The notes under the pieces were generated by a model that had not been told where the DNA came from, made no database searches, and was given only the letters and a program-made list of their open reading frames with translations. A program made the position numbers and the translations under genes. Below, one piece after another: positions 15,200 through 54,545 of a stretch of 64,000 nt of DNA (positions are counted from its first letter, which is position 1; the number at the start of each line of letters is the position of its first letter). This DNA is from Botryllus schlosseri (taxonomy: Eukaryota), in assembly GCA_051294905.1 (NCBI GenBank), contig CM119371.1, positions 35,280,001 to 35,344,000 on the forward strand. Reading direction: 5' to 3'.

Positions 15200-15228
15200 T
15201 CTATAATCTAATGATGCTCTTTGTTTAG
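15200..15228 (+). promoter_or_regulatory. Conserved putative 3' splice acceptor (branch-like ctaat/ctgat + pyrimidine tract + AG) upstream of the ZF arrays
   Basis: ctaatgatgctctttgtttAG here; homologous AG at 22031, 22611, 27552, 31336, 34586, 40263, 47592 and 49492; shifted AG at 43012 and 52941. Confidence 0.55.
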
Positions 15229-15413
15229 ATTACTTACCTAGATATCAGATTGTGCCAGACGGTCATCAAGCTAAGGTATATGTGCCGAATAAGGTTGGAT
15301 AAATTTAGCATTCCCAACACCTTAATGTGAAGATCTTGACGGGAAACTCGTTCAGTATCGTTGATGTGATAGTTCGAAGAAAAATTTCTTATGACCTGAA
15401 GTTTCATATAGAC

Positions 15414-15893
15414 ATGCTTGCTGATATGGAAAATCATATATGTGATGTTTGTGGGAAAGCATTTACATTGAAGTGTTACCTCAAGCGTCATTTGAACATA
15501 CATACTGGCATCAAAAATCACGAATGTGCTATTTGTGGAAAAACATTTACATTGAATGGTAACCTCCTGCATCATTTGGACATGCACATTAGCATAAAAA
15601 ATCACAAATGTCATGTATGTGGGAAAGCATTCACATCTTGGAGTAACCTCAAGTATCATTTGGATGTGCATGCGGGTATCAAAAATCATAAATGTGATGC
15701 ATGGGGGAAAGCATTTACATTAATGCGTTATCTCAAGCGTCATTTGGATATGCACTATGGTGTCAAAAATCATAAATGTGATATATGTGGAAAAAAATGG
15801 TCGGACGGGCTACCTCGAGCGTCACATGGTTGCGTTTGGTCGTCAAAAATCGGAAATGTGATATTTAATGGGAAAGGTGCCATGAAGCTATGA
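15414..15893 (+). pseudogene. C2H2 zinc-finger array ZF-a (3 intact fingers, 1 with Cys>Trp, last one frameshifted)
   Basis: CxxC…HxxxH repeats of 28 aa; CDAW lesion; frame breaks at ggaaaaaaatgg (~15795). Confidence 0.75.
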
Positions 15894-15919
15894 TAATTCA
15901 TCAGTGATACCAGTCTTAA

Positions 15920-18121: not shown

Positions 18122-21100
18122 CAGAGGTCTCAAACACGCGGCCCGCGGGCCGCATGCGGCCCGCCAGAGCATTTTGTGCGGCCCGCGACGACATTTTAGA
18201 TTTTTACTAATTTGACAATATATAAGTGTCACATATATCTTTTCAGGTTATAAAGTGAAAATGCCCTCCTAAATTACTCCGAAAGCCTCAAACTATTCAT
18301 CAAACTTCGCTATCACATCAATTGCAAACGCTACCATGCAGTGGAAGATTCACTATTTCGCCAAATTTCCAATTCATGATGACAAATCGTGACCCTTAGA
18401 CGATTCGTGACTGAAATTTGTGAGTTGGACTTAGGCGCGACCTTTCCTAAATTACTCAGACTCGGGCTAACTCGATGGCAAAATGAAAATGAATCGAGTG
18501 GACTTGGAGTGACTCGGAATGCCGTGAATTTGTTAGAACCATGGACGCAACAAACTAATCGCGTATCAGGGGAGTAATAGATCAGAAGGTCGCACCTTGC
18601 TGGTATTTCGCTAACTAAGCAAGTTAATATGGCAACCATAGGAGTAATTCCCTCTCAACATGCAAACGCCCGTCTCCACACCATTTCAGATCAAATTGAA
18701 AATTTTCACATCGACAAGGTACTAAATTTGGTGCATAGCAAACTTTGTTTCAAGAAAATCGGACAATTCGTTACAGAGTTATTGCAATTTGAAAAATGAC
18801 ATTTTGTGCTCACTCGGCCGTGACGCTATACCGCTTGGAACCTGTGTCTAATTGTAATTAACATTATAGTGATCAAATTGCTGCCGGGCAGACTTGAATT
18901 TCTGTAGTAAGATATTTTGGTATATGCTTATTGGGATAGACCTAAATTTTTAACTTTACTAATGGGGGTTAGGGGTCAAATGTCAATTCAAAGTCATCAT
19001 GTTTTCAAAATCAGTCATGCGTAACAAATATGCAACTCTGCCTAGCGTAATTCTATTTAAACCGATTTTTTCGAGGAAGGTGTCAAATGGAAGCTTGGAA
19101 AGAGTAGAACGTTGCTAAATTGGTATTGCATGTGATATTTGACTGCCACTTGTCTAAAACTTCATTGAAAAGATGCGCTCTAAATAGTGCATGACCTGTT
19201 ATGCATAAAGTGTCAAAGTATATTTTTAACCGTGATCCTGTCTTATATTCAATTCATAACCAATTCTGATGGATTCTAATTGGTAACAGCTTTCATATGA
19301 CACCTTACTTATGAATTTTGAGTTAGATAGAGTCGTGCCAGAGAGTTCAGAAATATCATCACGCATCACTGATTATAACATACTGGTATGTCAATTTTCG
19401 AATCAAGATTTGAACCTTGATTCTGTAATACGGAGGGGAATTCCTAGTGAGTGAAGAACATGTACCACCAATCATTGCTTACCAGCATTACTACCTGCAG
19501 CCTGTATAAGTAATGATTTTAGCAGTTATAATTATACGCAAATTTCATGGTTGAGTAAGCACGAAATCCTCATTCTTCATACTGCAATTGCTCAAGAACC
19601 GATCAATAAGGTTATATTAATTAAATTCTATTCTACTCAGAATTGGGTACTTTAGTTGTACATGATATTGCAGAGAAATCTGAGAGGGTGTGAAGACGAA
19701 TTGAAATATTATTTGGATGTTGACTCGAATTACTGATAGTCGGTAAACCCAGAAGCCCCCTTGCAAGCATAATGCACATGCAATAAATAAAAGTACTCTA
19801 TGAGCATGGCAATAATTATCTACTGAACACACATTATCATATAAGGAGTAGAATAATGACAAAATCAGATAATCACTGAATTAATATAATTAAAATTAAT
19901 TAAAAAATGACATATTTTGCATTATGCACCATATTATATTTTTAACCATGTTGCTGTCAAATATCAATAATAAAACTAAGTTTCGTGCATTCTAGTTGGA
20001 AACAGCTTTCAAATGACACCTTGCTTGTGAATTTTGGTTTAAATAGAATTGCACCAGATGAGTTGAAAAATATCGTTATGCATCACCGATTTTAACATAT
20101 GCCAATTTTGAAATCGCGTTTTGAACCTTGACCCAATACTGTGGAGCGGGGAAATTCGTGGTAAGTGAAGAACATGTACCAACAATTATTGCTAAATAAC
20201 ATTCAAACCTTTACTCTACGTAACCTCTGAGCTATATCAGTTACAATCATACACAGGTTTTGTGTTGCCAAATTTCATGGTTGAGTAATCACAAAATCAT
20301 CATTTTTCAAACTGCAATAACTCGAAAGCCGTTCAACGAAATTGTCCGAAATAAATTTCGTTGTACTCAGAACTAGATACTTTAGTTGTATATAAATTTA
20401 GGGAAAAATCTGAGAGGGTGTGGAGACGGATTTAAAAAATATTTGCATGTTGACAGGGAATTACTCATAGGCAATCTGTTAGTTACATCTCTGGTCGCTA
20501 AACCGTGTTATTAAGGCCACTTAAAGGTATCGAGTACCGTAGTGAGACGCTCCAACGATGTAACAGCAATGGGCCGTTCGGCGTTCCGACATTTCAATCA
20601 GTAGGACACATTCATTAATATATTTTTATTTTATTTATATTTTTTTCTGCTCCTATATTTGAAGATATGTGGCCATGAGATTAATAGCCTACTTATCAGA
20701 AGTATACCCGAATCATGGATTGGAATTACAATGCTCAAATTAAAAATGTTTTGATATCAGATCAGTCTCTATTATCCATCTGTTAAATTCAAAATATTCA
20801 TAGTAGCTGAAAAATAATAACCCGATAGCTTTTATAATGGTATCATACATTTATCCGCCATACGGTGTCTATATCTAATAATTATATATATATATATATC
20901 AAGTACGACAGCAATTCTATTCAAATAGTTATAAATGTGAGGATTCTATTCGTGCCAGGCTTAAATTGATACAAGAGTACATCACATTTTGACGATCTGC
21001 GTTCACTGTCAGTCTGTTGGATCGGCTCACTTTCAATAGGACAATCCATTCCCGCAAAATAAGGCCTACTTGGAAAGACACAGAATACCCCCATAAATGC

Positions 21101-21166
21101 TGCGGCCCGCGGCGTCGTCAAAACTGGAAAACTGGCCCGCGAGCACATTTGAGTTTGAGACCTCTG
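18122..21166. mobile_element. Charlie/Buster-like non-autonomous hAT element
   Basis: Perfect 14-bp TIR cagaggtctcaaac / gtttgagacctctg; perfect TSD ctctatac; ggcccgc subterminal motifs; empty site visible at ~32770 (ttgcctctatacgatagtagatagc). Confidence 0.95.
18642..20466. mobile_element. Non-autonomous DNA transposon with 4-bp TSD and GAG…CTC ends (Sola-like), nested in 18122-21166
   Basis: 25-bp TIR gagtaattccctctcaacatgcaaa / tttgcatgttgacagggaattactc (24/25); TSD atag / atag. Confidence 0.8.
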
Positions 21167-22210
21167 CTCTATACGATAGTAGATAGCTGCCAAAGCCTGC
21201 GAGGCCGGCGACGCGACATCTTGCGCACGAGGTCAGATGCGATTGTTCAGGCCAACAGTTATGTCATGTGCACCAGGCATGTTGGAGATTCAACCAGGCC
21301 AGCGATAAGATCTTGCGCACATGGCGTGCTGTGTATGCGGTTGTTCAGGCCTGTAGTTGACGTGATAAATTAGCGAGGATTGCCGTGTGCGGGTACAGTT
21401 AATGATCTAATTTAGCAAGCGAATCAACGGCAAACCAACTCAACAGGAGATCACGCGCTGTTGTGCAGCGCAGACAACCCTGGGCAATCAATCTGTAATA
21501 CGCCTTGTGCGCAAGATGTCGTGTCGCTGGCCTGAACTATCGCATCGCCGGCCTCGCATGCTTTGACCGATATCAACTATCGTTCATGGAAAATGCCGTA
21601 AATTGTATAATGATTAGCGATCGTTGTCGTTGTAAGGATGCGTATTATACATGTGGATGTGAAAATTACTGTAATCTAAGATTGACAACGAGCGTCTCAA
21701 ACTTTGAATCCGCTATCAGACTATTGGCGTAATTTATTCACGCTAATCAAAATATGAGAAAGGCCTGATGATTCAATTGAAGTCCGATCTGTTACAGAAC
21801 AGATTCCACGACAGACTTTGACATTTTGATTTGATTTACCACCCTATAATATAGTCATGGAGTGGCTGCACCACCCCGTAATCGAGAGTTGAATTATGCT
21901 CAAATGGCTTGTTGCTATGTAGGCGTCTGAACTATCGTTTGTGCATTTTATTTAATTCTATTGATTTATTTGTATGTGCAAGAGTAACGGTCGCACTGTC
22001 TTTAATCGAATGAATGATGCTCTTTGTTTAGTTCACTTACCAATATATTAGATTGTGCCTGATGGTCAATAAGCTTGGCTGTATGTGCGAATTGAGTTGG
22101 GAAAGATCTAGAATTCCTAACACTTTGAGCGTGAAAATCTTAACTCGGTAAAGATTGTTGATGCATCATTTCCATGAAAAAATTCATATAACCTCAAGTT
22201 TTATATAGAC

Positions 22211-22480
22211 ATGCATGCTGGTATAGGAAATCAAAGACGTGATACTTGTGGGAAAGCATTTACTCGCAAGGGATACCTCGAGTTTAATTTGGAAATGCAT
22301 ACTGGTGTCACGAACCATAAGTGTCATGTATGTGGAAAAGCATTTACATGGAAGGGTACCCTCAAGCATCATTTGGACATGCATGCTGGTATGAAAAATC
22401 ATAAATGTTATACTTGTGGGAAAGCATTTTCTCGGAAAGGCTACTTCAAGCTTCATTTGGATAAACATGCCGGTGTTACA
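22211..22480 (+). pseudogene. Truncated C2H2 ZF array ZF-b (3 fingers, first lacks a Cys)
   Basis: The ORF runs from finger 3 directly into the upstream module of the next gene at ggtgt|tacagtatgcttg. Confidence 0.75.
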
Positions 22481-22740
22481 GTATGCTTGTATGGCTTGTT
22501 GATATGTAGTCATTTGATTTTGTTCAGTTCATTTGTTTCTATTGCTTTTTTTGTATGATATGCATGTATGGCGGTTGTGCTTACTATAATCTGATGGTGC
22601 AATTTTTTCAGCTTACTTACCGAAATATCAGAGTAACCGAAATATCAGAGTATCATTAAGCTGAAGTATATGTTTGAATAGAGTTGGGAAAAATTTGCAT
22701 TCCTGGCACTTCAACCTCAAATGCTCAATCAAGATCGTTG

Positions 22741-24159
22741 ATGCGATATTTCAGAAAAGAAAATTCACATGACTTCAAGTTTGAAATAGACATGCAGGCT
22801 GGCATCAAAAATCATAAATGTGACATATGTGGGAAATCATTTACTCGGAAGTATGTCCTTATGCGTCATTTGGACATGCATGGAGGCATCAAAAATCATA
22901 AATGTGATACTTGTGGGAAAGCATTTTCTCGGAAAGGATACTTCAAGCTTCATTTGGATATGCATGCCGGTGTCACAAATCATGAGTGTGATATATGTGG
23001 AAAAGCATTTGCATCGAAGAGTAACCTCAAGCATCATTTGGACAAGCATGCTGGCGTCACAAATCATAAGTGTCATATATGTGGAAAAGCCTTTACATGG
23101 AAGTGTAACCTCAAGAATCATTTGGACAGGCATTCTGGCATCACGCATCATAAATGTGACATATGTGGGAAATCATTTACTCGGAAGTATGTCCTTATGC
23201 GTCATTTGGACATGCATGGAGGCATCAAAAATCATAAATGTGATACTTGTGGGAAAGCATTTTCTCGGAAAGTATACTTCAAGCTTCATTTGGATATGCA
23301 TGCTGGTGTCACAAATCATGAGTGTGATATATGTGGAAAAGCATTTGCATCGAAGAGTAACCTCAAGCATCATTTGGACAAGCATGCTGGCGTCACAAAT
23401 CATAAGTGTCATATATGTGGAAAAGCCTTTACATGGAAGTGTAACTTCAAGAATCATTTGGACAGGCATTCTGGCGTCACACATCATAAATGTGATGTAT
23501 GTGGGAAACCATTCAAATCGAAGGGTAACCTCAAGCGTCATTTGGAAATGCATGCTGGAATCCAAAATCATGCATGTGATATTTGTGGAAAAGCTTTCAC
23601 TCAGAAGAGTGACCTGAAACTTCATTTATACATGCATGCTAGCATCAGAAACCACATATGTGAGATATGTGGGAAAGCATTTATTCGGAAGTATCTCCTC
23701 GAGCGTCATTTGGACATGCATGCTAGCATCAAAAATCACAAATGTGACATATGTGGGAAATCATTTACTCGGAAGTATGTCCTTATGCGTCATTTGGACA
23801 TGCATGGAGGCATCAAAAATCATGAATGTGATATATGTGGAAAAGCATTTTCACAAAAGGTCGAACTCAATCTTCATTTGGAAATGCATGCTGGCGTAAC
23901 AGATCATAAATGTGATATATGTGAGAAAACTATCAAGTCAAAGCGTGCCCTCAAATTTCATTTGGACATGCATGCTGGCGTCACAAATCATAAATGCTGT
24001 ATATGTGGAAAAGCTATTTCTACAAAGGGTACCCTCAAGCTTCATTTGGACATGCATGCTGGCGTCACAAATCATAAATGTGATATATGTGGGAAAGCAT
24101 TTATTCAGAAGAGCAACCTCAACGTTCATTTGGAGAGGCATGCTCAATCGCAAATGTGA
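22741..24159 (+). CDS. C2H2 zinc-finger protein ZF-c, 16 tandem fingers
   Basis: Open frame with 16 intact CxxC-x12-HxxxH units; first in-frame ATG at 22741 (the track start 22684 is TTG); internal 336-bp duplication. Confidence 0.88.
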   Translation: MRYFRKENSHDFKFEIDMQAGIKNHKCDICGKSFTRKYVLMRHLDMHGGIKNHKCDTCGKAFSRKGYFKLHLDMHAGVTNHECDICGKAFASKSNLKHHLDKHAGVTNHKCHICGKAFTWKCNLKNHLDRHSGITHHKCDICGKSFTRKYVLMRHLDMHGGIKNHKCDTCGKAFSRKVYFKLHLDMHAGVTNHECDICGKAFASKSNLKHHLDKHAGVTNHKCHICGKAFTWKCNFKNHLDRHSGVTHHKCDVCGKPFKSKGNLKRHLEMHAGIQNHACDICGKAFTQKSDLKLHLYMHASIRNHICEICGKAFIRKYLLERHLDMHASIKNHKCDICGKSFTRKYVLMRHLDMHGGIKNHECDICGKAFSQKVELNLHLEMHAGVTDHKCDICEKTIKSKRALKFHLDMHAGVTNHKCCICGKAISTKGTLKLHLDMHAGVTNHKCDICGKAFIQKSNLNVHLERHAQSQM

Positions 24160-26635
24160 TATATGCTGAAAGGTATTTCCTCAGAAGGGCAACCTCAAGC
24201 GTTACTTCCAGGACAGTTAATTTCTCGGTGTATTTGGATTTGAAAACTGCATAGTCCGACAAGCGTCGCCATGTCCGCTATTCTCTCTGAGCAATCATGG
24301 TATCGGGCAATCAAGACTTCGAGGCGTACGATGGCGGTATGATTGAATTCGCTGGTGGTGTTGGTCACCGTTGCAACAGCAACTTAATTTGTGGATTTTC
24401 AAAGGGGGTGTGAGCCTTTGACCCTGGCAATATATTAAGGATGATTGCTGCGCGATGCTCGCTCGTGCTCAATGACCTAATTTCGCTCTCGTACAAATGG
24501 CTAACTAACTTAGCAGGAGACCATGTGCTGTGCTGCTCGTTAATTGGTAACACGCTTCTCGCTAATTGGCAGCACATAACACCCATAATACGAATTACTG
24601 AGCGCGATGGCTGAAAGTGATGCGCGATTGGAAACAAACATGAAGAAAGGTGTGATTTCAATTTTTTATCGAGGGAGATTTTTTTCAAGACTATGCCAAT
24701 GTATAATGCGTATCCCCTATTTTAGGGCAAAAAACCGTGAAAATTTTGCGCATTATACATGGAAAATTACAGTAATTCATTATTCCTGATACTTGCTAAC
24801 AATGAGGGTGTATTTTCTGTAAAATATCGATATTCTAGAGCAATTTAAAATTATGCTTTATGTTTACCGCTGTACCGTGTAAAAACAGTTGAATTGCTGC
24901 CTTATTATGAGTTGATCACTGCGATGGTAGTTCCTATCCGCGAAAGTGAAGGTGGGGAGATCCGATTTCTATACGCAATTGAGACAAGTCCTCATATTTA
25001 AAGGCTTTCGCATATAAAAAACCACAATTATTTGCCATATTGCTCAAGTAGTCAGCAATGGCAAGGAAATCTATTAACCAATATTGGAACATGTTGACTG
25101 TTTTGCTGCTTTCGAAAAAGAATAACTTTAGTACTTGCTCTTACAATGCCATCACTGACCCAAATTTTGACAACTTCGGGTCCAATGCTACGTTATAGGG
25201 GCGTAGACATGTGATCCATATCCAAGATCCCCCACCCATTCCCCCCAAGCTCAAATATGCCACCAGAATCCGAAATCTAGCTCTGTTATATCTTGGTATA
25301 ATTGCTCATTTGTGATTGGATGCCCAATGAGCAGTTTCACAAGAGCAATAAATTTTTCTCCTAACCATTTCTCGTCTATGACAATGGGAGTAATATGCGT
25401 ATCACATTATATTGCAGCTGAAGATTTCGCCCTTGCGCGTTCATGGCTATAGTACCATAACAGATTGTGGGCCTACTAATCATATGCCCGATGTGGAATC
25501 TATCATGTAATCCAATTCGCAATGATTTAGATTGGTTGTTGTGTTGGTTCCCAGATTTCCGTCTTTTCGTATCTCTAGCGCATCTGCTGATCAAATGCAC
25601 TTGGCCAGTAGTAAAAACATTAGAGGCTTGCAAAAAGTAGACCGCTCCGTGACTCAAGGCGCGTTATAGGGCTATCCATATTCGATGTATTGCGGTAATG
25701 ACAAGAAGTTATAGGCGTGGACAATTCACAATTGTGACTTTTGCACCGCAAACGCATTTTGGAAAGCTTTTTTGATTGCTTGCCTGAGCCTGCGCCGGTC
25801 CACTATTATTCATGATTGTATCACACAAGCTCGAGCGTTAATTGGTTTTTAATAGAGCCCGACCAATTGTCGATCCGATATCACATTTTGAAGTAATTAT
25901 CTGTATCGACCATTAGAGGTGAAAAAATATCAGCAATTTTCGTTAAGTCACAACATGGTGGTAAAATGTTAGGAAACCATAATCGTTGGCCTCTGATTGA
26001 AAATATTGCTGTACCTCATATATCTTACACTTCCACGGTGTCCGGATGCAGCATTTTTAGTTGATTTCAATATCGAATATGACTATGGAATGGAAAATCC
26101 CGTTTTACCATTGTTAAGTCACGCTTGAATTCTTTTAGCAGTTTTGGTCACATTACTTTGCTGTAGGTAAGATGGCATATCACATGTATACTCGACTTTG
26201 ATACTAATATTACCATCCCAATCAGTTATCAGTTACCATTAATCCTGAAACTTACTACAGCGTTTTATGACAATCATAACATCATCTTGATATACAATTC
26301 GGAAGATAGTCTTTTAACTCGGTATGCAACAGCATCAAAATCTACATTTGTGTACAATCCATGATAAAAATGGAGATGTTCGGACCAGCAGATTTAGTAA
26401 AGCTAGTCATGATACTTCATTAGTCACGGCATGGCAACACGTACGCTGTATGCCAGAGGCGAAAGTCGTCGAAAATTTCAAGTTGTATGTTGACTGCCGT
26501 CAACACATGCTAGTGAAATTACGTGTACACAGCCATACACACATTCTTCTATGACTGCATGCGGCGTACAACCATTAGTTGGCCGCTGTTGATCTCAAGT
26601 ATTTCCTTCAATGGTAAGCACTACCTTGTCTAGTG

Positions 26636-27275: not shown

Positions 27276-27666
27276 GGGTCTAGTGAACTTGAATTGGCGC
27301 TCCCCAACCCTTGCTCGCACGCCTTTATCGAAATTGCTGAGAAAATGCTATGAATGTGTAAGGGATATTATGCTTTTTGTTTTACGATGTGGTACAGTAT
27401 GCTTGTATGGCTTGACGATATGTAGTCCTTTGAACTATGATCTGTTCATTTCATTTGATTTTGTTTAATTCATTAGTTTCTATGGTTTTATTTGTATGAT
27501 ATGCATGTATGGCGGTTTTGCTTACTATAATCTGATGGTGCCATTTTTTTAGATTTCGTACCGAAATATCAGATTATCATTAAGCTGAAGTATATGTGTT
27601 GAATTGAGTTGGAAAAAATTTTGGATTCCTGACACTTCAACCTTGAAGACTCGATCAAGATATTTG

Positions 27667-35859: not shown

Positions 35860-36062
35860 TATTTACTTGGAAGAGTGTCCGCCCACTTCATGATAATTCA
35901 TTATTCCTAATACTCCATAACCATGAATGTGTAATTTTCTGTAAAACGTCAATATTAAGCTATTTGAAATCAGGCTCGATATTTACCACTGTCCCGTGTG
36001 AAAATATTCAAATTGCTGCCTTTTTATGAGTTAATCACTGCCATCATAGGCACCGACTTTAA

Positions 36063-44217: not shown

Positions 44218-44735
44218 CATTTGTGGAAAAGCATTTACCCAGCAAGTTGACCTCCAGCATCATTCGGATAAGCATGCTGGCGTCACAGATCATAAGTGCG
44301 ACATATCGGGAAAAGCATTTACATCAAAGCAATAACTCAAACATCATTTCGACTTGCATGCTGATGTCACAATCTGAAGTGTGATAAATATGGATAAGCA
44401 TTAGCATTGATAGGTAACCTCCAGTGTCATTTGAACGAACATGCTGGCATTAAAAAAATCATGAATGTGATATTTGTGGAAAAGCATTAATATCGGAAAT
44501 AGCACCCAAGCATCATTCAGACAGACATGCTGGCATCAAAAATTTTTATTGTGGTGTTTGTGGGAAAGCATTTACATCGAATATGGCTCTCAAGCTTTAT
44601 ATGGGCACGCATGCTGGCATTAGTCATGAATGCGATATATGTGGAAAATCATTTACTCAGAAAAGCAACCTGAAGCATCACACGGTTGCGTGCTGATGTG
44701 AAATATCAAAAATGTGATATTTACTGTGTAGGGTG

Positions 44736-46134
44736 CAGACATGGGGTGATTACTTCGTAAATGTAATCGAATGCGATTACGATTACTTCCTACCCACACA
44801 ATTACGATTACAGCAAAATCCCCGGTAATTGATTACGATTACAACACAAAAGTAATCACGATTACACACGATTACATTTATTTTGTATCCTTGTATCGAC
44901 GTGTTCAAACGAAATGTTGCAACAATGTAGCCAGGGATATCTAGATATCCCTGCATGTAGCATGTAGCACAGACCTTTAAATACCTTTATTACATTTGAT
45001 AAACAGAAGAGTTTCAAATCGCTTATCTGTTAAGCGACATCGATCTGGCTTGAAAACCCTCCCACCAACGCTATAAAGCCGTTCCACGGTCGACGATGTT
45101 GCAGGCCCCGGCAAATATAAAATGGCTAATTTCGCTAGCGTCGGCATCGATGCTTCATGAATATTCCAAAATTTCACGGGACCCGAGTCGTCTGATAAGC
45201 AAGGCTCGGCTAAATACTTGCTCAGTTCTTAGTCAATCGTTGAGCCGCGAGAGGTGCAAGCGCTGTTCGAAGATCTGCAACCCATGTAATTAAATAGTTT
45301 GCATCTTTTAACCGGAACATCAGTGTCAGTGGTGGTTGGCTGTTGTTTGATGTCGTACGAGACATTTCACCCTTGATTAATTCATGCAGCGCAGACAACT
45401 CGTCTTCTTTGCACGACACGCCTTTAAAACGCGGATCAAGTATTGCAGCTAATCGGAACACCTTCTCCTTGTCATAAGCCACGAATCGCAACTTCAGCGA
45501 ATGACGAAAAGTATTAATGATACGGTTGAAGTTACTATTGTTGTAATATTTCGCATGCATCTCATCAAGCTCTGATTGCAATCATCGAATACAGGGTATG
45601 ACAAAACTTGAGGTGACTATTTTATCTCCTTGCGCTTTATCAGTTGCCGTATCAAACGGACTCAAAATTTCGCATAAACAGCTCATGTACAGTAAGCTTG
45701 TGATGAGTCATGGTAAATCATGCAGAACGTCATGGGGAACTTCTAGAACCGATTTGATCATTCTTAGTTCGGGATTCCATCTCGTTGCATTTGCTGTTTG
45801 GAGCTTTTTGAAGTCTTTCAATCGCTCGGTGGCGTGCGTTGATTTACGAACGTGAGCCATAATGTTGGACGCTTTACTGATTACTTTACCCAAATTGGAT
45901 GCTTCTTTCATACCGTCTTGACGCATTAATACTATTACCTTGTTAACAGTGCCGACGTTCCCACAATTTATATGTACTAACATCACGGCACAATTGTATT
46001 TCCGACTCGCGTTCGCGACTTACTGTCAATCAGTAAGAGTAATCGCGTTTTTACGAAATAATCGATCCAATCCAATCGATTACGATTACGATTACTTGGA
46101 AATGCTGTAATCGATTACGATTACCCCATGTCTG
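44736..46134 (-). mobile_element. Internally deleted hAT (Ac/ZBED-like) transposon
   Basis: TIR cagacatggggtgat / attaccccatgtctg (14/15); TSD gtagggtg / ctagggtg; gattac subterminal repeats; empty site at ~29368 (gtagtgtgccctccaac). Confidence 0.93.
44977..45986 (-). pseudogene. hAT transposase remnant (C-terminal half with dimerisation domain)
   Basis: Three broken ORFs with ATRWN, AAILDPRFK and FWNIHEASMPTLAKLAILYLPGPATSSTVERLYSVGG…RCRL motifs. Confidence 0.9.
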
Positions 46135-47771
46135 CTAGGGTGCCCTCCAACTTCATTATTTTATTAATCATTCACTCTAGTCCATAACAATAGTGTATAT
46201 TGTATATGTTTTGTAAAACGTGGGGAGATCCGATTTCCATGCGCAATCAAAAATTCCGTACATCACTATTGGAGCAAGTCGACTTTTACTGGTCTTAAAA
46301 ACGATTCACAACTTTACCACTTGCTCTTGCCACGACAGCGCTACCCCATAGTTTGCCAACCTCTTGTCAACAGCTTTTGTAGCCTCACGACATTGAAACG
46401 GAACAAGTGGATTATTGTGAAGTGAATTCTATGTTCTGTGTGACGAGTAAAATGATGGTTTATCATAATATTGCGAAGAGCTTTTATTTCTTGCGCCATT
46501 TGTGACAGGTGATTTCATTACTCCCTTGTTTACTACGCTATCATACCCAATATGAAAATGGAGATGTGTGGGCTTGCGGATCTGGTAAAGGTTGCCATGA
46601 TCCTTAAATAATCAAGGGCATGGTGACATGTAGGCTGTGTATGTCAAATGCGATAGTCAGTACTCGCCAAATCAAAATTGCATATTGACAGCCGTCAAGA
46701 CTTTCATATTGAAGTACGTGTACACACCGTGCATATGTTCTTCATTGTCAATTGGCTGGCCGCCGCTAACGTACAGTGAACACCTTTCTTTCAATGGCTA
46801 GCAATGTGTTGTTGTGTGTACTGGAAGTGGCAGTCCCCAACCCTTGATCCGATAAATTTTTAGTTGGTCGCATAGTGTGTTTTGGTAACTCTAAGACAGG
46901 GTGGGCACCGTTCTGTGCAGCCCGCAAGAGTCTGAAGAAACTCATGAAAAATATTGATAAAATGCGTAGGCTACTTGAAATCGAATTAATGCAAGGACTT
47001 GATTAAACTTTTTCTTGGTATATTTCACTATGATAATTCTAAGTCAGTGGCTCTCAAACTAGGGGCTCCCCCCTTGGGTACGTGAAAGCATCAGACGAGG
47101 TCGCGAAGCTGAGCTCAACTGAAAAAAAATTCTCGCCGGGCGCGATTTACATCCACTCATAGTTATTGCTCTGTATTTAGTTGGAATTTTATATTTCAAA
47201 ACCTCTAATCCACAGTCGTAACCTTCCATGCCATCACACTATCCGTTTGACTTGCTAGCATCCTGGTTGCGTTTCGTGATATGACGGTAAGGGGTGCGCG
47301 AAATCTTTCACCATCATAAGGGGGGAGGGTTACTTAAAAAGTTTGAGAATCGCTGTTCTAAGGTAAATACTTCTCAATCATTTTTTATGTTCAATTTCTG
47401 GCGCGACAGCCCGATTTCAAGGCCCACGCATTTCGAAAGGTGTTTAACTGCTACAGTATACTGGTATAGATTAGTGCTATGTAGTCCACTGGACCATCGT
47501 TTGTGTATTTCATTTGATTCTGTTGATATATTTTTATGATATACAAGTATATTGGTTGTGCTGTAAATAATCTAATGATGCTCTTTGTATAGATTACTTA
47601 TCAACATGTCAGCTTTTGCCAGACGATCACTAAGCTACGGCATACGGCCGAATAAAGTTGGGAAAAATTTTGCATTCCCAACACTTAAAATATGAAGACT
47701 TGGACTCGTTCAAGATCGTTGATGCGACATCCCTAACAATAAATTCATATGACCTGAAGTTTCATATAGAC

Positions 47772-48000
47772 ATGCATGCTGGTATCTAAAATCATGAATG
47801 TGATGTTTGTGGAAAAGCATTTTCCTGGAAGAGCGACCTCAAGATTCATTTGAACACGCATGCTAGAGTTGTAAAGTATTTACTCAGAAGTGAATCCTCG
47901 TTCGTCACTTAGACAGTCATGCTGGCGTCAGTCATAGGTGTGGTATATGTGAAGAATCAGATACAATCTCTTGCGTCATATGGTTGCATCACATGTCGGA
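47772..48000 (+). pseudogene. Short decayed ZF array remnant
   Basis: 5' module, MHAGI* stop, one intact-looking finger (WKSDLKIHLNTH), then deleted fingers ending RHMVAS. Confidence 0.7.
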
Positions 48001-48489
48001 AATCTGGTATATACTGGAAAGAGTGCCCCCAGCTTCATATGATTATTCATCAGTCATACTAGTCCAGCTGTTCTCAAACTTTTTACGACACGCCCCCTCG
48101 ATTATAGTGAAGAATTTTGCGCCTCCTTATTGCAATCCCAAGGCATTGTTAGGGCATGAAAGATGGTATTGGTGTTGAGATACTTCTCAAATATGGAAAT
48201 GGTACCATACACAGAGCAAGAATTACGAGATAAATTTCCAGTTGAATATTTTGAAATCATGTTCAATAGTAGCATGTAGCAAATAGATATTTTAATGCTA
48301 TTACCCCACTTGTGTCTAGCTCAAATGTACCTGACCATAAGCAAAGTCAGTTGCATTTCTTTGAAGGGTACCTTCTGATCAGCGTAAGGTTTGGTGTCAA
48401 TCAAAATCTTGCATCAGTGTATGAATGGTACAACGCCATGATGACATTTCAAGTCGAAAAATAAGTACAAATAAGACATTGTTGGAACT

Positions 48490-49040
48490 TGGAAGTTGAA
48501 GCACGAATTAAACTCATTCATTGTTGAAGAAACATCATTTCTCTCAGTCAACAACTATGAATGTATATGTTCTAGAAAAGGTAATATATTTATGCATTTA
48601 AAAATTACGTTTGATGTTTACCGCTCACGTCAAAACAGTCAAATTACTGCCTTTTTATGTGTTAATTACTCTGATTGTAGTTCGACCACATTTTGTCAGA
48701 ATTTAAAGCTGTCCGAGAATGTGCAGGTGTGGGGAGATCCGATTTCCATACGCGATTGAGACCAGTCCTCACATTTCGGAGGCTTTCGCATATCAAACTA
48801 ATAATTATTCCGCATGCGTCTCAAAGCAAAGAAATTCGTACATCGTTATTGGAACAAGTTGACTTTCTGCGGTCTCGAAAAAGATTAGCAACTTTACCAA
48901 TTGTTATTACTATGACATCACTACCCCTTAGTTTGACAACATCGGGTCAAACGTTTCTGTAGCCTCACTACGTTGAAACGGGACAATTGGTTTATTGTAA
49001 AGTGAACTCTATATTCTGTTGGACAATTAAAATTATGGTT
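48490..49040 (+). pseudogene. Putative decayed hAT transposase C-terminal region forming the inter-ZF spacer (representative copy)
   Basis: Read across frameshifts and copies: RFPY…AYQ…IIP…HQYWSKL…RFA/RLATL…LAVTMTSLPHS…VERF(C)SL…K. Copies or partial copies at ~17360-17720, 24775-25190, 29430-29760, 33830-34310, 39290-39850, 41040-41340, 46215-46540, 51020-51300 and 63850-63955. Confidence 0.5.
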
Positions 49041-49663
49041 TATCTGCAATCTCTGCAACTGCAGATTGAGTGAAGGTAGCTATGATACTTTATTAGTCGA
49101 AGGCATGGTGACATGTAGGCTGTATGCCAGTCGCGATAGTCAGTCGTCACTAAATGCAAATTGCATGTTGACGGCCGTAGTCACATGCTAGTTGAATTAC
49201 GTTTACACAACTGTACATATATTCCTCTTCGTGTGTTGTATAGTATACTTGAATTGATGCTCCCCAACCATTGATTGCATGCCTTTGTCGAAATTGCTGT
49301 GAAAATGCTCTCAATATTATGGTACATTATACTGTTTGTATCACGAAGTGTTACAGTATACTGATATGGCTTGTCGATATGTAATTCTTTGGACTATGAT
49401 TTCTTCATTTCATTTGCTTCTATCGCTTTATTTGTATGATATGCATGTATGGCGGTTGCGCTTTCTATAATCTGATGGTGCTCTTTGTTTAGATCACGTA
49501 TCGACACATCAGATGTGCCAGACGGTCACATAGCTAAATAATATTAGCGAAAGGGAGTTGGGAAAAATAACATTCATAGCACTGCAAACGTGAAGACTTG
49601 CACTCGTTCAAGATCGTTGATGCGATATTTCCAAGAAATAATTAATATAACCACAACTTTCCC

Positions 49664-50776
49664 ATGGACATGTGTGCTGGCATCAAGAATAATAAATGTG
49701 ATATATGTGAAAAAGCATTCACATCGAAATGTGCCCTCAGGCTTCATTTGGACAGACATGCTGGCATCAATAATAAATGTGATATTTGTGGGAAAGCATT
49801 TTCTCGTAAGAACTACCTCAAGTTTCATTTAGGCATGCATGCTGGCGTCACAAATCATAAGTGTGATATATGTGGAAAAACATTAGCATCGAAAGGTAAC
49901 CTGAAGCTTCATTTGGATATGCATGCTGGCATCAAAAACCATGAATGTGATATATGCGGGAAAGCATATACCCAAAAATGTTACCTTAAGCTTCATTTGA
50001 ACATGCATGCTGACGTAACAAATCATAAGTGTGATATATGTGGGAAAGCATTTACATCGAAAGGTAATCTCAAGCAACATGTGGACCTACATGCCGGTAT
50101 CAAAAATCATAAATGTTATATTTGCGGTAAAGCATGTACTCAGAAGAGTGACCTGAAGCTTCATTCGGACAGACATGCTGGCGTAACAAATCATGAATGT
50201 GATATATGTGGGAAAGCATTTACTCGGAAGGGTGACCTCAAGGTTCATTTTGACAGACATGCTGGAGTAAAAAATCATAAATGTGATATATGTGGAAGAG
50301 CATTTACTCGGAAGGGTGACCTCAAGTTTCATTTGGACATGCATGCTGACATGAAAAGTCATAAATGTGATATATGTGGGAAAGGATTTACTTGGCTGGT
50401 TGACTTTAGGCGTCATTTGGACAGGCATGTTGGCGTCAATCATAAATGTTATATATGTGGGAAAACATTTACTCGAAAGGTCAGCCTCAGGATTCATTTT
50501 GAGAGGCATGCTGGCGCCAGTTATAAATGTGCTATATGTGGAAAAGCCTTTCCATCAAATAGTAACCTCAAGCAACATCTGGAAATGCATACCGGCATCA
50601 GAACTAGTAAATGTGATATTTGTGGAAAAGCATTTACTCACAAGGGTAACCTCAAGCGTCATTTGGACACGCATGCTGGCATCAAAATCCATAAATGTGA
50701 TATATGCGGAAAAGCATTCACTCGGATGGGCAACCTCAAGCGTCACACGGTTGTGTGCGGGCAGCAAAAATCATGA
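49664..50776 (+). CDS. C2H2 zinc-finger protein ZF-h, 13 fingers (last is C2HC)
   Basis: ATG-initiated open frame ending HTVVCGQQKS; out-of-frame decayed fingers follow to ~51020. Confidence 0.88.
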   Translation: MDMCAGIKNNKCDICEKAFTSKCALRLHLDRHAGINNKCDICGKAFSRKNYLKFHLGMHAGVTNHKCDICGKTLASKGNLKLHLDMHAGIKNHECDICGKAYTQKCYLKLHLNMHADVTNHKCDICGKAFTSKGNLKQHVDLHAGIKNHKCYICGKACTQKSDLKLHSDRHAGVTNHECDICGKAFTRKGDLKVHFDRHAGVKNHKCDICGRAFTRKGDLKFHLDMHADMKSHKCDICGKGFTWLVDFRRHLDRHVGVNHKCYICGKTFTRKVSLRIHFERHAGASYKCAICGKAFPSNSNLKQHLEMHTGIRTSKCDICGKAFTHKGNLKRHLDTHAGIKIHKCDICGKAFTRMGNLKRHTVVCGQQKS

Positions 50777-53102
50777 ATGTGATGTTTGTGGTGAAGCATT
50801 TACTGGTGAGGGTGACCTTATGTTTCATTTGAACATGCATGCTGGCGTCACAAATCCTAAGTGTGATATATGTGGTTAAGCAATAATATCCAAAGGTAGC
50901 ATCAAGCTTCATTTGGACATGCATGCTTGCATCAAAAAATAATAAATGTGATATTTGTGGTAAAGCATTTACTCGGGAGGGTAAATTCTAGCTTCATTGG
51001 GACAGATATGCTGGCGTGACAAAAATTGCGTGCATCCCTATTTGATCAAGTCGACTTTTACTGATCTTGAAAAAGATTTGCAACTTTACCAGTTGCTTTT
51101 GTTATGACAGTGCTACCCCATAGTTTGTCAACCTCTGAACAAACGCTTTTGTAGCGTCACGACGTTGGAACGGAACAAGTGGATTATTGTGATGCAAATT
51201 CTATGTTCTGTGTGACGAGTTAAATGATGTTTTATCATCATATTGCGAATAGCTTTTATTTCTTGCGCCAATAGTGATTTCATCACTCCCTTGTTTACTT
51301 CGCTGCCGTACCCAATATGAAAATGGAGATGTGTGAGCTTGCGGATTTGGTAGAGGTTGCCATGATACTTTAACAGTCATGGGCATGGTGACATGTTGGC
51401 TCTGTATGTCAGTCGCGATAGTCAGTAGTCGCAAAATTCAAATTGCATGTTGACAGCCGACGATGCATGCATGTTGAATTTCGTGTACACATCGTGCTAA
51501 CACCTTTCTTTCAATTGATAGCAATGTGTTGTTGTGTGTACTTGAATTGGCAGTCCCCAACCCTTGGTCCGATAAATTTTTGGTTGGCCGCATACTGTGT
51601 TTTGGGGGGGTGGGCACCGTTCTGTGCGGCCTACGGGAGTCTGAAGAAACTTATCAAAAACTATTGATAAAATGCGTACTTAAAATCGAAATAATGCAAG
51701 GACTTCATTAAACTTTTTCTTAGTATATTTCACTATAATAATTCTATGGCAGTGGTTCTCAAACTGGACGCTCGCCCCCCTCGGGGGCGTGAAAGTATCA
51801 GAAGGGGTCGCGAAGCTGAGCTCAACTGAAAAAAAAATCGCGCTTGACCCGATTTACAGCCACTCATAGTTATTGCTCTGTATTTAGTTCGAATTTTATA
51901 TTTCAAAACCTCTAATCCACACGCGTAACCTCCCGTGCTATTACACTATCCGTTTGACTGGCTAGCATCCTGGTTGCGTTTTGTGATATGCCGGTAAGTG
52001 GTGCGCGAAATCTTTCGCCATCATAATGGGGGGAGGGTGTCTTAAAAAGTTTGATAATCGCTGTTCTAACGTAAATACTTCTCAAATCATTTTTTATGTT
52101 TAATTTCTGGCGCGACAGCCCGATTTCAAGGCCGACACATTTTGAAAGGTTTTAACTGCTTAACATCACAGAAATCTAAATGAGATTTTACCAAATTCGG
52201 ATCAGTAGTGTGATTTAAGATTGACCACTCCAGTTCTATTTTATTTCAGTAATGTGCTTACAAAAAACGATCCGCACGTGTCTTAGGTATATTCGTTATC
52301 TGTATGCGTAGAATTAGGGTATTCATATTTTATCTACACACAGTAGAAGCGTGCCTGAAGCTAACATGGTTATTATGCTGTCAGCATTGTGTGTCCTGGA
52401 ACTGAACCAATAGTGGAAATCTATCGTCGGTGTCACACTGTCACACCCATTCTTAAGCAGCTACTTTTAAACGCTTTGCCCAACGGCAATGATATCAAGC
52501 AAATGAAAATTACGTTAGATGTGTACTGCTGCCCTGTGCTTAACCATTCAATTTACTGCCTTTCCATGAGTTGATTACTGTAATATTAGTTCAACTATAT
52601 TTTTTCGGTATTCAAGAAAGTGTAAGTGTGAGGGGGTATCTGATTTCCATACGCAATCGACTCATGTCCTCAGATTAAAAAGCAATATATTGTCTAGTGT
52701 ACTTGGATCAGCGCTCCCAACCCTTGCACGCATGCCTTTGTCGAAATTGCTGAGAAAATACAATCAATATTTGAAGTACATTATGCTGTTTGTTTTACAA
52801 AGTGTTTACCTGCCGATATGTAGTCATTTGGACTGTGATTTGTTCATTTCATTTGTTTCTATTGCTTATTTGTATGATATGCGTGTATGGCGGTTGCGCT
52901 TTCTATAATATGATGGTGCTCTTTGTTCACATTGCTTACAGACATATCAGATTGTGCCAGGCGGTCATTAAGCTAAGGCATATGTGCCGAACGGAGTAGG
53001 GAAAATTTTGCATTCCCGACACTTCAACCTTGAAGACTTGAACTCAATCAAGATCGTTGATGCGATATTTCGGAAGAAAATTCATGTGACCACAAGTTTG
53101 AT

Positions 53103-53804
53103 ATGGACATGTATGCTGGTATCAAAAATCATGAATGTGATATTCGTGGAAAAGCATTTAGTCGAAAATGCGGCCTCAAGCTTCATTTGGACATGCATGC
53201 TGAAATCAAAAATCATAAATGTGATACTTGTGGGAAAACATTCTCATCGAAGAGTTACCTCAAGCTTCATTTGGACATGCATGCTGGCGTCACAAATCAT
53301 AAGTGTGATATATGTGGAAAATCATTTACATTGGAAGGTAACCTCAAGCGTCATTTGGACATGCATTCTGGCATCAAAAATCATAAGTGTGATATTTGTG
53401 GTAAAGCATTTATCTGGAAGGGCAACCTCAAGCTTCACTCGAAAATGCATGCTGGCGCCAATCATGAATGTGAAATTTGTGGGAAAGCATTTATTCACAG
53501 GGCTCACCTCAAGTTTCATTTGAACATGCATGCTGGCCTCAAAAACCAAAAATGTGATATATGTGGGAAGGCATTCACATCGAAGAGTTCTGTCAAGCTC
53601 CATTTGTCCATGCATGTTGGCATCAAAAATTATAAATGTGGTGTTTGTGATAAAGCATTTATCTGGAAGAGCAACCTCAATCGTCACTTGGAAATGCATG
53701 CTGGCGTCAATTATAAATGTGATAAATGTGGAAAAGCATTTACCAGAAAGAGCAACCTCGAACGTCATATGGCTGCGTGCGACCGTCAAAAATCAAAAAT
53801 CTGA
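53103..53804 (+). CDS. C2H2 zinc-finger protein ZF-i, 8 fingers (first Cys>Arg, last C2HC)
   Basis: Open frame; fingers 1-3 nearly identical to ZF-g fingers 1-3; ends HMAACDRQKSKI. Confidence 0.82.
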   Translation: MDMYAGIKNHECDIRGKAFSRKCGLKLHLDMHAEIKNHKCDTCGKTFSSKSYLKLHLDMHAGVTNHKCDICGKSFTLEGNLKRHLDMHSGIKNHKCDICGKAFIWKGNLKLHSKMHAGANHECEICGKAFIHRAHLKFHLNMHAGLKNQKCDICGKAFTSKSSVKLHLSMHVGIKNYKCGVCDKAFIWKSNLNRHLEMHAGVNYKCDKCGKAFTRKSNLERHMAACDRQKSKI

Positions 53805-54545
53805 TATTTATTGGGAAGGGAGCCCTCCAGCTTCATGTGATTATTCCTCGTTCATAATAGTCAATAATCATGAGTGTTTTTTTTCCTGGACTTGTCCAAC
53901 GCTCCTGTAGCCTCATGTCGTTGGAGTGAAGCGAATTCTATTCAATATTATTAGTTTAACGATGGTTTATCAGTTGATCAGCTTTCATTTGTCGCGTAAC
54001 TTATTACAGGAAAATACATCACTTCCCTTTCCTCGCTCGAGTGTCTATCTGACTTGCGGTTTGAATGGGCTGTTTTCTGTATCGAAGTCCTTTCGTTTCG
54101 TCTTGGAGAAATGAAGCGTGTCACAGTGTTGGTCTGATACCGAAGCAGCAAGTTCCTTTCGAGTCCAAAATCCAAAATGGTTCTTGACCCAGAATCGGAA
54201 TTTCAGCAACAGCACATCAGGTCCTCCAGTCAGAGCAAAACTACACTACCGTGCTCATGATTAAAACTGTGATGTGCGGGACCATGATCATGTGTTGAAC
54301 CCTAAGCAGTTTTCTAAGCGTCTTTCAAGCTGGTGATGCCATATTTTGTGATACCATTGTTGACATACGATGTTCTTTCGAATTCTTCACTAGTTGCTGA
54401 CGATTACCCCTGACGAGTGTCAGCCGAAAATATTCGGGTTCATGTCAATATGAATATACTATTCAGTTTGATTTGCAGGCTCGAGCTTTATAGACTGATT
54501 TGCGATACACATACATATAAATATCTCGACCTTGCTGAACTAGAT

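Follow-up and report, generated by a model that had tools for sequence, protein, structure and literature searches.

Lineage-specific expansions of zinc-finger genes are the main known way in which animal genomes gain new DNA-recognition proteins. The KRAB and FiNZ zinc-finger genes are the best-studied cases, and both join fingers to a repressor module. The TGEKP linker commonly marks the C2H2 class and is not required by the fold. KRAB clusters of tetrapods, for example on human chromosome 19, are composed of tandem, co-oriented poly-C2H2 genes that undergo birth and death via unit duplication and via finger gain and loss inside arrays, and in which helix positions -1, +2, +3 and +6 vary above a constrained framework. 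According to Wells et al. (2023; PMC10547256), the FiNZ genes of cyprinid fish are a lineage-specific set of hundreds of arrays that favors one chromosome, was missed by standard gene sets and revealed only by re-annotation, has no Pfam effector domain and bears an N-terminal exon of 28 aa that is conserved; these genes have been demonstrated to be expressed, to be under positive selection and, upon knock-down, to derepress transposons.

The locus described here lies in a 64-kb stretch of the Botryllus schlosseri genome, termed the window. It shares with the KRAB clusters each of the traits above, but no KRAB was found in the window, the linker is AG(V/I)KNH instead of TGEKP, and the coding part apparently is a single exon. 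The family appears to resemble FiNZ genes in its restriction to one lineage, in its number of arrays and favored chromosome, in its omission from standard gene sets and in the lack of a Pfam effector domain. Unlike in FiNZ genes, the leader upstream of the fingers keeps no reading frame, and distant paralogs had no ORF of at least 25 aa in common within ~6 kb upstream. The locus probably is a local tandem cluster, with 12 co-oriented members, of a huge lineage-specific poly-C2H2 family whose products are predicted to be bare, site-divergent binders. This is a known kind of gene family, a lineage-specific birth-and-death zinc-finger cluster; the variant linker and the lack of a recognizable effector set it apart.

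Arrays with an 84-nt period were located by Tandem Repeats Finder (Table 1), and 12 arrays or remnants were counted, all on the + strand, in agreement with the ~12 co-oriented copies of the original prediction. Four to six are open (247–497 aa, with frames of 493, 497, 404, 355, 376 and 247 aa) and six are wrecks, among which d, f and j are leader-only or one-finger relics. A six-frame search with the pattern C-x2-C-x12-H-x3-[HC] recovered 90 intact C2H2 fingers, each of them on the + strand and between 15441 and 53780, with no intact finger elsewhere in the 64 kb. The fingers possess the classical spacing C-x2-C-x12-H-x3-H, the core Phe and the core Leu each are kept in 81 of 90, and the G, K, F and L of CxxCGKxF...L are conserved in 81–85 of 90 units. 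Pfam zf-C2H2 (PF00096) matched six arrays with E values of 5e-81 to 4e-42 and scores of 140.9–263.1 bits relative to a curated cut-off of 25.2. The closest solved relative in a PDB sequence match was ZNF568 (E=8.6e-61 across 303 residues). Membership of this family, the sole basis for the assignment, suggests that the arrays would bind DNA.

Table 1. Features of the cluster and its surroundings, in window positions.
Feature	Position	Strand	84-nt array (Tandem Repeats Finder)	Description
Array a, partial leader	from 15184	+		upstream of array a
Array a, remnant	15309–15893	+	15430–15794	3 intact fingers; 194-aa open frame; 4.3 repeat units
Array b, truncated 5′ piece	22178–22558	+	22191–22461	leader and 2 intact fingers
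Array c, leader	22501–22818	+		TATA-like CTATAAT at 22584
Array c	22678–24159	+	22789–24144	493-aa open frame; 16 fingers
Relic d	26865–27110	+		leader piece and one decayed finger
Array e, leader	27278–27744	+		CTATAAT at 27525; TTTTTAG at 27546; ATGs at 27667 and 27718
Array e	27589–29082	+	27701–29316	497-aa open frame; 14 intact fingers
3′ flank, cluster-only	29423–30130	+		copies at 41041, 46206 and 51020; 81–89% identity
High-copy interspersed repeat, class unassigned	30133–31105			many contigs; 74–82% identity
Relic f	31122–31592	+		leader alone; finger pattern lost just after first HAG
Array g	34645–35859	+	34686–35827	404-aa open frame; 14 fingers
Array h	40352–40901	+	40420–41025	deletion derivative of a k-like gene
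Array i	43150–44217	+	43177–44654	355-aa open frame; 12 fingers
Decayed hAT transposase	44980–46019	-		three open pieces, between arrays i and j
Relic j	47478–47912	+		leader and one finger
Array k	49646–50776	+	49665–51015	376-aa open frame; 13 fingers; ends ...RHTVVCGQQKS
Array l	53061–53804	+	53089–53817	247-aa open frame; 7 intact fingers

The locus is a tandem cluster in which zinc-finger genes and wrecked copies stand together, and it is young and still changing. A two-gene block of 4.6–5.3 kb that contains arrays h and i (39257–43820, + strand) is duplicated as 48461–53743 with 85–93% identity, and array l is a recent copy that derives from the 5′ part of array i (93% identity). Within array c, a four-finger block of 336 nt (22813–23148) recurs at 23149–23484 with 96–100% identity per finger. 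Wrecks of truncated, deleted and frameshifted type lie next to the open arrays. The last linker of array b (HAGVT) continues directly into the region upstream of array c, which indicates that the remainder of array b was deleted, and a match of 40460–42465 to 50438–52422 at 92% indicates that array h lost its middle fingers. Further finger units in other frames extend to 44696 behind array i, the tail of which is thus frameshifted; ~3 further units in another frame follow array k to 51015, and decayed units extend beyond the stop of array e to 29316. Array g has several 6-residue linkers (AGVSHK) and only a partial leader (34494–34631), and the second Cys of the first finger unit of array l is changed to Arg (CDIRGKAF). 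Open arrays beside wrecks and the copies of the two-gene block and of the block in array c bear out the birth-and-death process proposed originally. Growth proceeds by duplication of whole units and of finger blocks within arrays, and decay by deletions and frameshifts that shorten arrays. As half of the members are wrecked and decayed fingers lie downstream of open arrays, some of the open frames may belong to recent pseudogenes that have yet to acquire a stop.

The original prediction held that a homogenized framework carries variable helix positions -1, 2, 3 and 6. In the 90 units, entropy reached 2.83, 2.56, 2.84 and 2.83 bits at -1, +2, +3 and +6, respectively, the top four among 28 columns with the fifth at 2.18 bits; the contact positions thus are more variable than every framework column, and dN/dS agreed with this ranking. 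The ratio was determined from reciprocal-best finger pairs, 19 from the window and 91 from 501 fingers of the window and 20 paralog loci; the pairs include within-array duplicates and measure past constraint rather than present function. Outside the contact positions dN/dS was 0.39 for the window pairs (57 nonsynonymous vs. 32 synonymous changes; p=1.1e-4 in a binomial test against neutrality) and 0.37 for the 91 pairs (239 to 138; p=4e-17). At the contact positions the value was 1.50 in the window (25 to 5), which is not significantly greater than 1 (p=0.30, one-sided; 19 pairs), and 1.41 in the larger set (117.5 to 24.5), which likewise is not (p=0.16; 91 pairs). The contact to framework pN ratio was 2.8 for the window pairs. 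Among the 91 pairs the four contact positions had the four highest pN values, and zinc-ligand codons showed 0 nonsynonymous vs. 18 synonymous changes. The framework is under purifying selection and the rate at the contact positions is close to neutral or slightly higher, a pattern in which selection retains the zinc ligands and the residues that form the fold and the four base-contacting positions drift. As dN/dS at the contact sites is not significantly above 1, the term ‘rapidly diversifying’ is not supported in the sense of positive selection.

The constraint on the framework, which is evident in the window alone, also bears on the proposition that every member of the cluster is a pseudogene and that the working members of the family reside elsewhere. 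Six of the 12 members are plainly wrecked, decayed fingers continue past the stops of e, i and k, the first finger of array l is minus one zinc-binding Cys, and RNA coverage is not clear in two runs at ~6 and ~13% of depth. However, the four frames of 376–497 aa in c, e, g and k are still open at a paralog DNA identity of just 73–80%, and the zinc ligands are without any replacement among intact fingers. A cluster composed entirely of dead genes is distinctly improbable.

The preferred reading of a cluster with coding members envisages a compact gene unit in which a ~470-nt leader without a kept frame would precede one coding exon of 84-nt finger units and a common 3′ flank. The leader is conserved among the cluster copies and was found in 13 places only, all within C1:35295184-35346464; two leaders lie just beyond the end of the window. 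The 3′ flank is, from its sequence copies, part of the duplicated gene unit. In array c, the leader contains a candidate acceptor or start site at ~22604–22613, an in-frame stop at 22675 and candidate ATGs at 22741 and 22792, and the previously reported position of the stop between the putative acceptor and the ATGs was confirmed. The leader is read in different frames from copy to copy, and its small upstream ORF lacks the ATG in e and is interrupted by a stop in k. Moreover, in b, c, e, h, i, k and l the first Cys is preceded by a Met at a distance of exactly 9 residues. As the leader has no conserved frame, the proteins probably start at this position and consist of fingers only; they would be bare arrays of ~250–500 aa without an effector domain. 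Transcription, start site, splicing or trans-splicing and start codon of the arrays are all deduced from sequence features.

Alternatively, the arrays may be the 3′ exons of effector genes whose upstream N-terminal exon, short or novel in the manner of the 28-aa FiNZ exon and either less than 25 aa or located beyond 6 kb, was missed. KRAB and FiNZ zinc-finger genes have just such a two-exon layout (PMC10547256), and a good acceptor-like site (a T-rich run and AG) is conserved in a, c, e, g, h, j and k, where it precedes the first Cys by ~215 nt. In c (22675), i and k, in-frame stops nevertheless separate this site from the fingers, and the frame of the leader and its small ORF are not maintained between copies. 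Units are homologous only from ~470 nt upstream onward, and this homology does not extend outside the cluster. Furthermore, a comparison of 26 upstream regions (20 paralogs and six window arrays; blastp 1e-4) revealed no non-finger ORF of at least 25 aa on the same strand within ~6 kb that was common beyond a few close copies. A missed exon is therefore an improbable explanation.

The absence of KRAB, SCAN, BTB, ZAD and SET domains noted originally was sustained on a larger scale. In the six arrays Pfam detected nothing but zinc-finger families, and it detected no KRAB, SCAN, BTB, zf-AD or SET domain in 90 ORFs of at least 75 aa from either strand of the entire window or in 261 (150 + 111) + strand ORFs of 33–74 aa between 9000 and 54000. 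In total, 351 flanking ORFs with a shortest length of 33 aa were scanned, and KRAB (PF01352) was found neither in these nor in the six arrays. A genome-wide search for KRAB also produced no match, but control genomes gave none either, and the result is weak. The proposed embedding in DNA transposons held in part: one dead hAT copy is present (C-terminal dimerization domain, E=8.5e-15, the sole transposase domain that scored in Pfam), but other high-copy repeats are unclassified. The repeat downstream of the 3′ flank of array e had 4873 first-look genome candidates, and neither a terminal inverted repeat nor an ORF with a Pfam match was found in it. RNA-seq had been proposed originally; reads were sought between 21000 and 36500, and no clear coverage was seen: 96 reads in one run (~6% of depth) and 210 in a second (~13% of depth), of which 89 and 206, respectively, aligned there only in part. 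Most of these reads sit on interspersed repeats.

These data are pertinent to the KRAB-independent transposon surveillance proposed originally, a reading by analogy with the KRAB genes of tetrapods and the FiNZ genes of zebrafish, in which each new array would be selected against a new transposon family and would silence that family. Tandem clusters, fast turnover and contact-focused variability are as in KRAB and FiNZ zinc-finger genes, and the setting is repeat-rich. Hundreds of arrays on one chromosome-sized contig recall zebrafish chromosome 4 (PMC10547256), and a correlation between zinc-finger and retroelement copy numbers across Metazoa is reported as well (Wells et al., 2023). Against this, neither a repressor domain nor a conserved N-terminal exon emerged from the 351 ORFs and 26 upstream regions, contact-site dN/dS is not significantly above 1, and no expression was seen in the RNA reads. 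Any diversifying family of DNA binders would yield the same pattern. Surveillance by silencing is possible but rather unlikely. In the preferred reading, the proteins would act as sequence-specific binders of nucleic acid, most likely DNA, with a different site for each paralog.

The noncanonical linker of the original prediction was verified, since TGE[KR]P[YF] occurs in none of 69 window linkers, but it is not specific to the cluster as the K form is carried by all 20 paralog loci, from 13 contigs, as xG(V/I)K(N/S)H. TGE[KR]P[YF] also is absent from 400 paralog linkers, and none of the 69 and 400 linkers has Pro at position 5. The length is kept at 7 residues, with 6 in some linkers of the window, where AGVTNH (15 of 69) and AGIKNH (7) are the commonest. 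The VT form is only a local variant, in which Lys is changed to Thr in approximately one-third of the linkers of the local subfamily. The proposed genome-wide search revealed 660 exact H-A-G-[VIM]-K-N-H sites (reversed-pattern control, 1) vs. 32 canonical H-T-G-E-K-P-[YF] sites (control, 0). Thus, AG(V/I)KNH replaces TGEKP(Y/F) throughout the family, with Gly kept, Lys mostly kept, and Thr and Pro lost. The family differs from the KRAB and FiNZ cases in two respects: no module is detectable, and the linker departs genome-wide from the best-conserved motif of the C2H2 class. As such, it would be a natural experiment on the real need for the TGEKP linker and on whether selection for function can act on bare finger arrays.

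The finger family accounted for 185 matches out of 1171 first-look genome candidates, mostly on contig C1, and by sequence similarity the cluster is part of a very large poly-C2H2 family on the order of hundreds of arrays. The AG(I/V)(K/T)NH linker was absent from all 5812 linkers of 365 public proteins and no tunicate was among the named top matches of the public protein searches. The lineage-specific repertoire proposed originally is supported when judged against these proteins. Standard gene sets and public protein databases miss this family, which numbers hundreds of arrays and occurs in a chordate near the vertebrates. The Thr of the TGEKP linker is a mitotic phosphorylation site, and its phosphorylation frees zinc-finger proteins from chromatin. 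In a more specific proposal, a single founder with a linker devoid of Thr and Pro gave rise to the whole repertoire (~200–300 arrays, ~3000 fingers), mostly on one chromosome and in one sea-squirt lineage; the effector-less arrays would bind DNA with altered linker mechanics, would diversify against transposons and would conduct an independently evolved, occupancy-only surveillance of the genome, and without the Thr they would escape mitotic-phosphorylation release from chromatin. This proposal is unlikely. Features of the fingers that run counter to the assumed DNA binding are the linker without Thr and Pro, the one-third of local linkers without Lys, and unusual helix residues: 39 of 90 window fingers have Gly at +2, 42 of 90 have Leu, Ile or Phe at +6, and Lys occurs at +1 and +5.

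In a Styela clava survey, zf-C2H2 was the most variable family of tunicate transcription factors, numbering between 72 and 310 genes across six species, and the available part of that survey describes no tandem variant-linker family, unlike the hundreds of such arrays in the genome here (PMC8122590). The best-scoring named public relatives instead were locust (Schistocerca) poly-zinc-finger proteins with 38–49% identity to array e. No linker of these proteins matched [AS]G[VI][KT][NS]H, and in contrast to the family here their linkers keep the initial Thr-Gly and mostly the Pro, and the proteins have long non-finger N-terminal regions. The likeness probably is convergent or generic. It comprises a CDICGK-type framework and a His that replaces the aromatic residue two positions ahead of the first Cys, and the Schistocerca proteins also have variant linkers (TGKKPH) that in one protein (P0054) are without Pro, for example SAVKSH.

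Within the contig C1 of an assembly of 495.5 Mb and 219 contigs, the window occupies C1:35280001-35344000. A six-frame scan detected 90 fingers of the form C-x2-C-x12-H-x3-[HC], all 90 on the forward strand between 15441 and 53780, and none in the rest of the 64 kb. Tandem Repeats Finder placed arrays with an 84-nt period, the length of the finger unit, at nine places, and three relics (d, f and j) were recognized from a common leader preceding the first cysteine together with one finger or none. The original prediction of about 12 co-oriented arrays or remnants, denoted a to l from left to right, was thereby borne out. Zinc-finger families were the sole Pfam assignments in six arrays, with zf-C2H2 E values of 5e-81 to 4e-42, and the closest solved structure by sequence was ZNF568 (8.6e-61). 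The tRNA and Rfam scans of the window produced no match. The +1 frame and an antisense frame of the finger arrays are stop-free over 130-275 aa, as expected of a repeat unit that contains no stops in these frames, which is not evidence for overlapping genes. The features are collected in the table.

Features of the zinc-finger cluster (window coordinates unless C1 is given)
Feature	Coordinates	Strand	Remarks
Array c		+	open frame 493 aa; 16 fingers
Array e		+	open frame 497 aa; 14 fingers
Array g		+	open frame 404 aa; 14 fingers
Array i		+	open frame 355 aa; 12 fingers
Array k		+	open frame 376 aa; 13 fingers
Array l		+	open frame 247 aa; 7 fingers
Wrecks		+	a, b, d, f, h, j
Cys-ended last fingers	50740-50790, 40750-40800, 35830-35862, 53780-53807	+	arrays k, h, g, l, respectively
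Two-gene block	39257-43820		arrays h, i
Copy of the two-gene block	48461-53743		arrays k, l
Array beyond the window	C1:35344736-35345758		64% identical to array e
Open non-finger frames, among others	22790-23617	+	
	27763-28299	-	
	52972-53523	+	
Decayed hAT transposase	44980-46019	-	only protein-level transposon trace in the window
Interspersed repeat, ~1 kb	30133-31105; also 41529-42278, 46778-47452, 51499-52235		
Very high contig depth	21000-21516, 24619-25135, 32374-33407		
Second high-copy repeat	20921-21373, 32649-32963		very high contig depth in 21000-21516 and 32374-33407

The variant linker is a family trait. Linkers of the type xG(V/I)K(N/S/A)H occurred in 20 of 20 paralogs, the related loci elsewhere on 13 contigs. 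The canonical linker TGEKP(Y/F) was found in none of 69 linkers in the window and none of 400 in the paralogs, and proline at position 5 was likewise absent from both sets. Across the genome, H-A-G-[VIM]-K-N-H matched exactly at 660 sites compared to one for the reversed-pattern control, and H-T-G-E-K-P-[YF] matched at 32 sites (control, 0), which are dispersed singly or in pairs over many contigs. As 84 of the 400 paralog linkers fit the strict pattern, the family behind the 660 sites can be put roughly at about 3000 fingers, which would make up a few hundred arrays. Among the genomic matches listed, most belong to several groups on C1, and smaller groups are present on C3, C11 and C13.

Public proteins were searched with the whole of array e and with a profile of two fingers (56 columns), the latter both against 1.84 billion representatives and against longer proteins. 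Many thousands of matches resulted, of which the best 120 to 150 were inspected, and these were generic zinc-finger proteins only. A query with just the 80 N-terminal residues of array e retrieved nothing. None of 5812 linkers in the 365 proteins returned fit even a loose version of the variant pattern and 1857 were canonical. No tunicates were among the named top matches. The nearest named relatives were locust zinc-finger proteins, whose linkers read TGKKPH, and one locust protein has proline-less linkers such as SAVKSH. A survey of six tunicates gives 72-310 zf-C2H2 genes (PMC8122590), and zinc fingers do not come up in the main text of the Ascidiella comparative paper. Literature searches yielded no account of a tunicate family of this kind and no occurrence of the linker strings. 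The variant linker thus appears to be unreported so far.

Contact positions -1, +2, +3 and +6 of the helix had been noted to vary widely over a homogenized framework, and two measures agree in ranking them as the top four. Their entropies among the 90 units (2.83, 2.56, 2.84 and 2.83 bits, respectively) are the highest of 28 columns, the fifth column reaching 2.18 bits, and in the enlarged set of 501 fingers from the window and the 20 paralog loci they have the four highest pN values. Framework residues are retained in most units (G 84/90, K 85/90, F 81/90, L 81/90), and lysine occupies +1 in 64 and +5 in 65 of the 90. Each finger was then compared with its reciprocal-best relative and changes were counted by the Nei-Gojobori method. 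Pairs were picked on overall identity, and many of them are duplicates within one array. In the 19 window pairs, non-contact codons departed from neutrality (p=1.1e-4) with a dN/dS of 0.39 (57 nonsynonymous vs. 32 synonymous changes), and contact codons gave 1.50 (25 vs. 5; p=0.30, one-sided). The enlarged set of 91 pairs provided values of 0.37 (p=4e-17) and 1.41 (p=0.16), respectively, and zinc-ligand codons in this set accumulated 18 silent changes and no replacements. Thus, the finger framework has been under purifying selection in the past. Contact residues changed at about the rate of silent sites, with dN/dS not significantly above 1, and the description of the cluster as rapidly diversifying, if taken as positive selection, was not supported.

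The absence of an in-frame KRAB, SCAN, BTB, ZAD or SET domain had also been noted. Across the full window, with both strands included, Pfam detected no KRAB, SCAN, BTB, zf-AD, SET or THAP domain in the 90 open reading frames of at least 75 aa, among which a hAT dimerization domain was the sole match. Between 9000 and 54000, 261 forward-strand frames of 33-74 aa likewise lacked these domains, and their only matches were to finger relics and three weak ones at chance level. No common non-finger frame of at least 25 aa was evident beyond close copies in ~6 kb upstream of the 20 paralogs on 13 contigs and six window arrays (blastp, 1e-4). A KRAB search of the genome gave no match, as did the control genomes, which were all prokaryotic, making this result uninformative. 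Judged from their sequences, the genes apparently possess no non-finger part. The cluster resembles KRAB and FiNZ zinc-finger clusters in general behavior as described in PMC10547256, FiNZ denoting cyprinid genes with a conserved N-terminal exon, but apparently belongs to neither group, as no KRAB domain turned up in the frames searched and no conserved N-terminal exon of at least 25 aa in the ~6 kb upstream. It stands out by having lost the TGEKP linker across the whole family and by apparently lacking any non-finger part.

The leader, the ~470 nt preceding the first cysteine, is kept among cluster copies and occurs, as DNA, at 13 genomic places, all within C1:35295184-35346464, of which 11 are in the window and two just past its end. 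It carries a TATA-like CTATAAT ~235 nt ahead of the first cysteine, followed ~21 nt downstream by a T-rich run ending in AG that could be a candidate transcription start region, cis-acceptor or trans-splice acceptor. The reading frame of the leader is not kept between copies. Only in c and e does the invariant MRYF start codon share the frame of the fingers, and stops immediately precede the fingers in i and k. The stop noted in array c at 22675, between an acceptor-like site and the ATG, was confirmed and lies upstream of both ATGs. A methionine is situated exactly nine residues ahead of the first cysteine in b, c, e, h, i, k and l, and we infer a single coding exon that would begin in a decayed first linker. 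Two other arrangements were rejected: a small upstream coding exon, whose frame opens with MPLSKLLRKY ~420 nt before the first cysteine in i and l, lacks its ATG in e and has an in-frame stop in k, and a splice acceptor immediately ahead of the ATG-bearing pseudo-linker is not a conserved feature, as AG is absent there in k and l.

Array b is a 5′ piece, and the upstream region of c starts where the last linker of b ends, which fits a deletion instead of splicing of b to c; a single spliced gene comprising both was rejected as readthrough from the end of b via the acceptor encounters a stop. Array h corresponds to a k-like gene minus its middle. Beyond the stops of e, i and k, decayed fingers continue in other frames. 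The final fingers of g, h, k and l have cysteine as their last zinc ligand (…RH-x3-C), and a short tail comes after it. In h and k the DNA past this end still reads, out of frame, as linker plus finger. The stop common to these arrays therefore looks like an ancestral truncation by an old small deletion within a linker.

The block of h and i is 85-93% identical to its copy with k and l in self-comparison, other arrays are 73-80% identical, and an internal four-finger block in array c is repeated at 96-100% identity. These duplications, and the presence of wrecks beside open arrays, substantiate the proposed birth-and-death mode. The cluster is a lineage-specific, birth-and-death group of poly-zinc-finger genes. 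Contigs of other individuals (sets X1 and X4) differed from the assembly by ~2-6% in single-copy intergenic stretches of 21000-36500 (e.g., 36/586 and 20/446 letters). The youngest duplications can thus be little older than allelic divergence. Such differences suggest that polymorphism is very high or that the lineages are divergent, and they bear on read mapping at 95% identity. Two further cluster-specific leaders and at least one array lie just past the window (C1:35344311-35346464), and therefore the cluster resumes after a finger-free gap of ~10 kb (54000-64000).

The region 21000-36500 was compared with both contig sets and with two raw RNA runs, X14 and X15, sampled at ~6% and 13% of depth. 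X14 yielded 96 reads, 89 of which matched only partly, and X15 yielded 210, 206 of them only partly; the partial reads fell mostly on interspersed repeats. No splice joints were present among these 96 and 210 mostly partial reads. X1 and X4 covered 28/30 and 30/30 bins, intergenic DNA included, and therefore look like genomic DNA with no bearing on expression. In the contigs, joints connect one paralogous finger to another, which suggests assembly chimeras.

The arrays had been described as embedded in DNA transposons, which is only partly borne out. The region is indeed repeat-rich and includes one decayed hAT element; most of its repeats are unclassified. The transposon surveillance suggested for the cluster is drawn by analogy and is not a finding of the analysis. 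Within the 3′ flank of the arrays, the first 700 nt are confined to this cluster, and the kilobase that follows (30133-31105) is the ~1-kb interspersed repeat. This repeat was co-duplicated with the zinc-finger units, and many contigs carry copies that are 74-82% identical, with 4873 first-look candidates. It contains no open frame with a Pfam match, and a search of the copy at 30133-31105 found no terminal inverted repeats. RNA reads from other copies cover this repeat. Both copies of the second high-copy repeat share an open frame on the reverse strand (…PRAQDVASPASQALAAIYYRIE…) without a Pfam match, on which RNA reads were present in X14 and X15.
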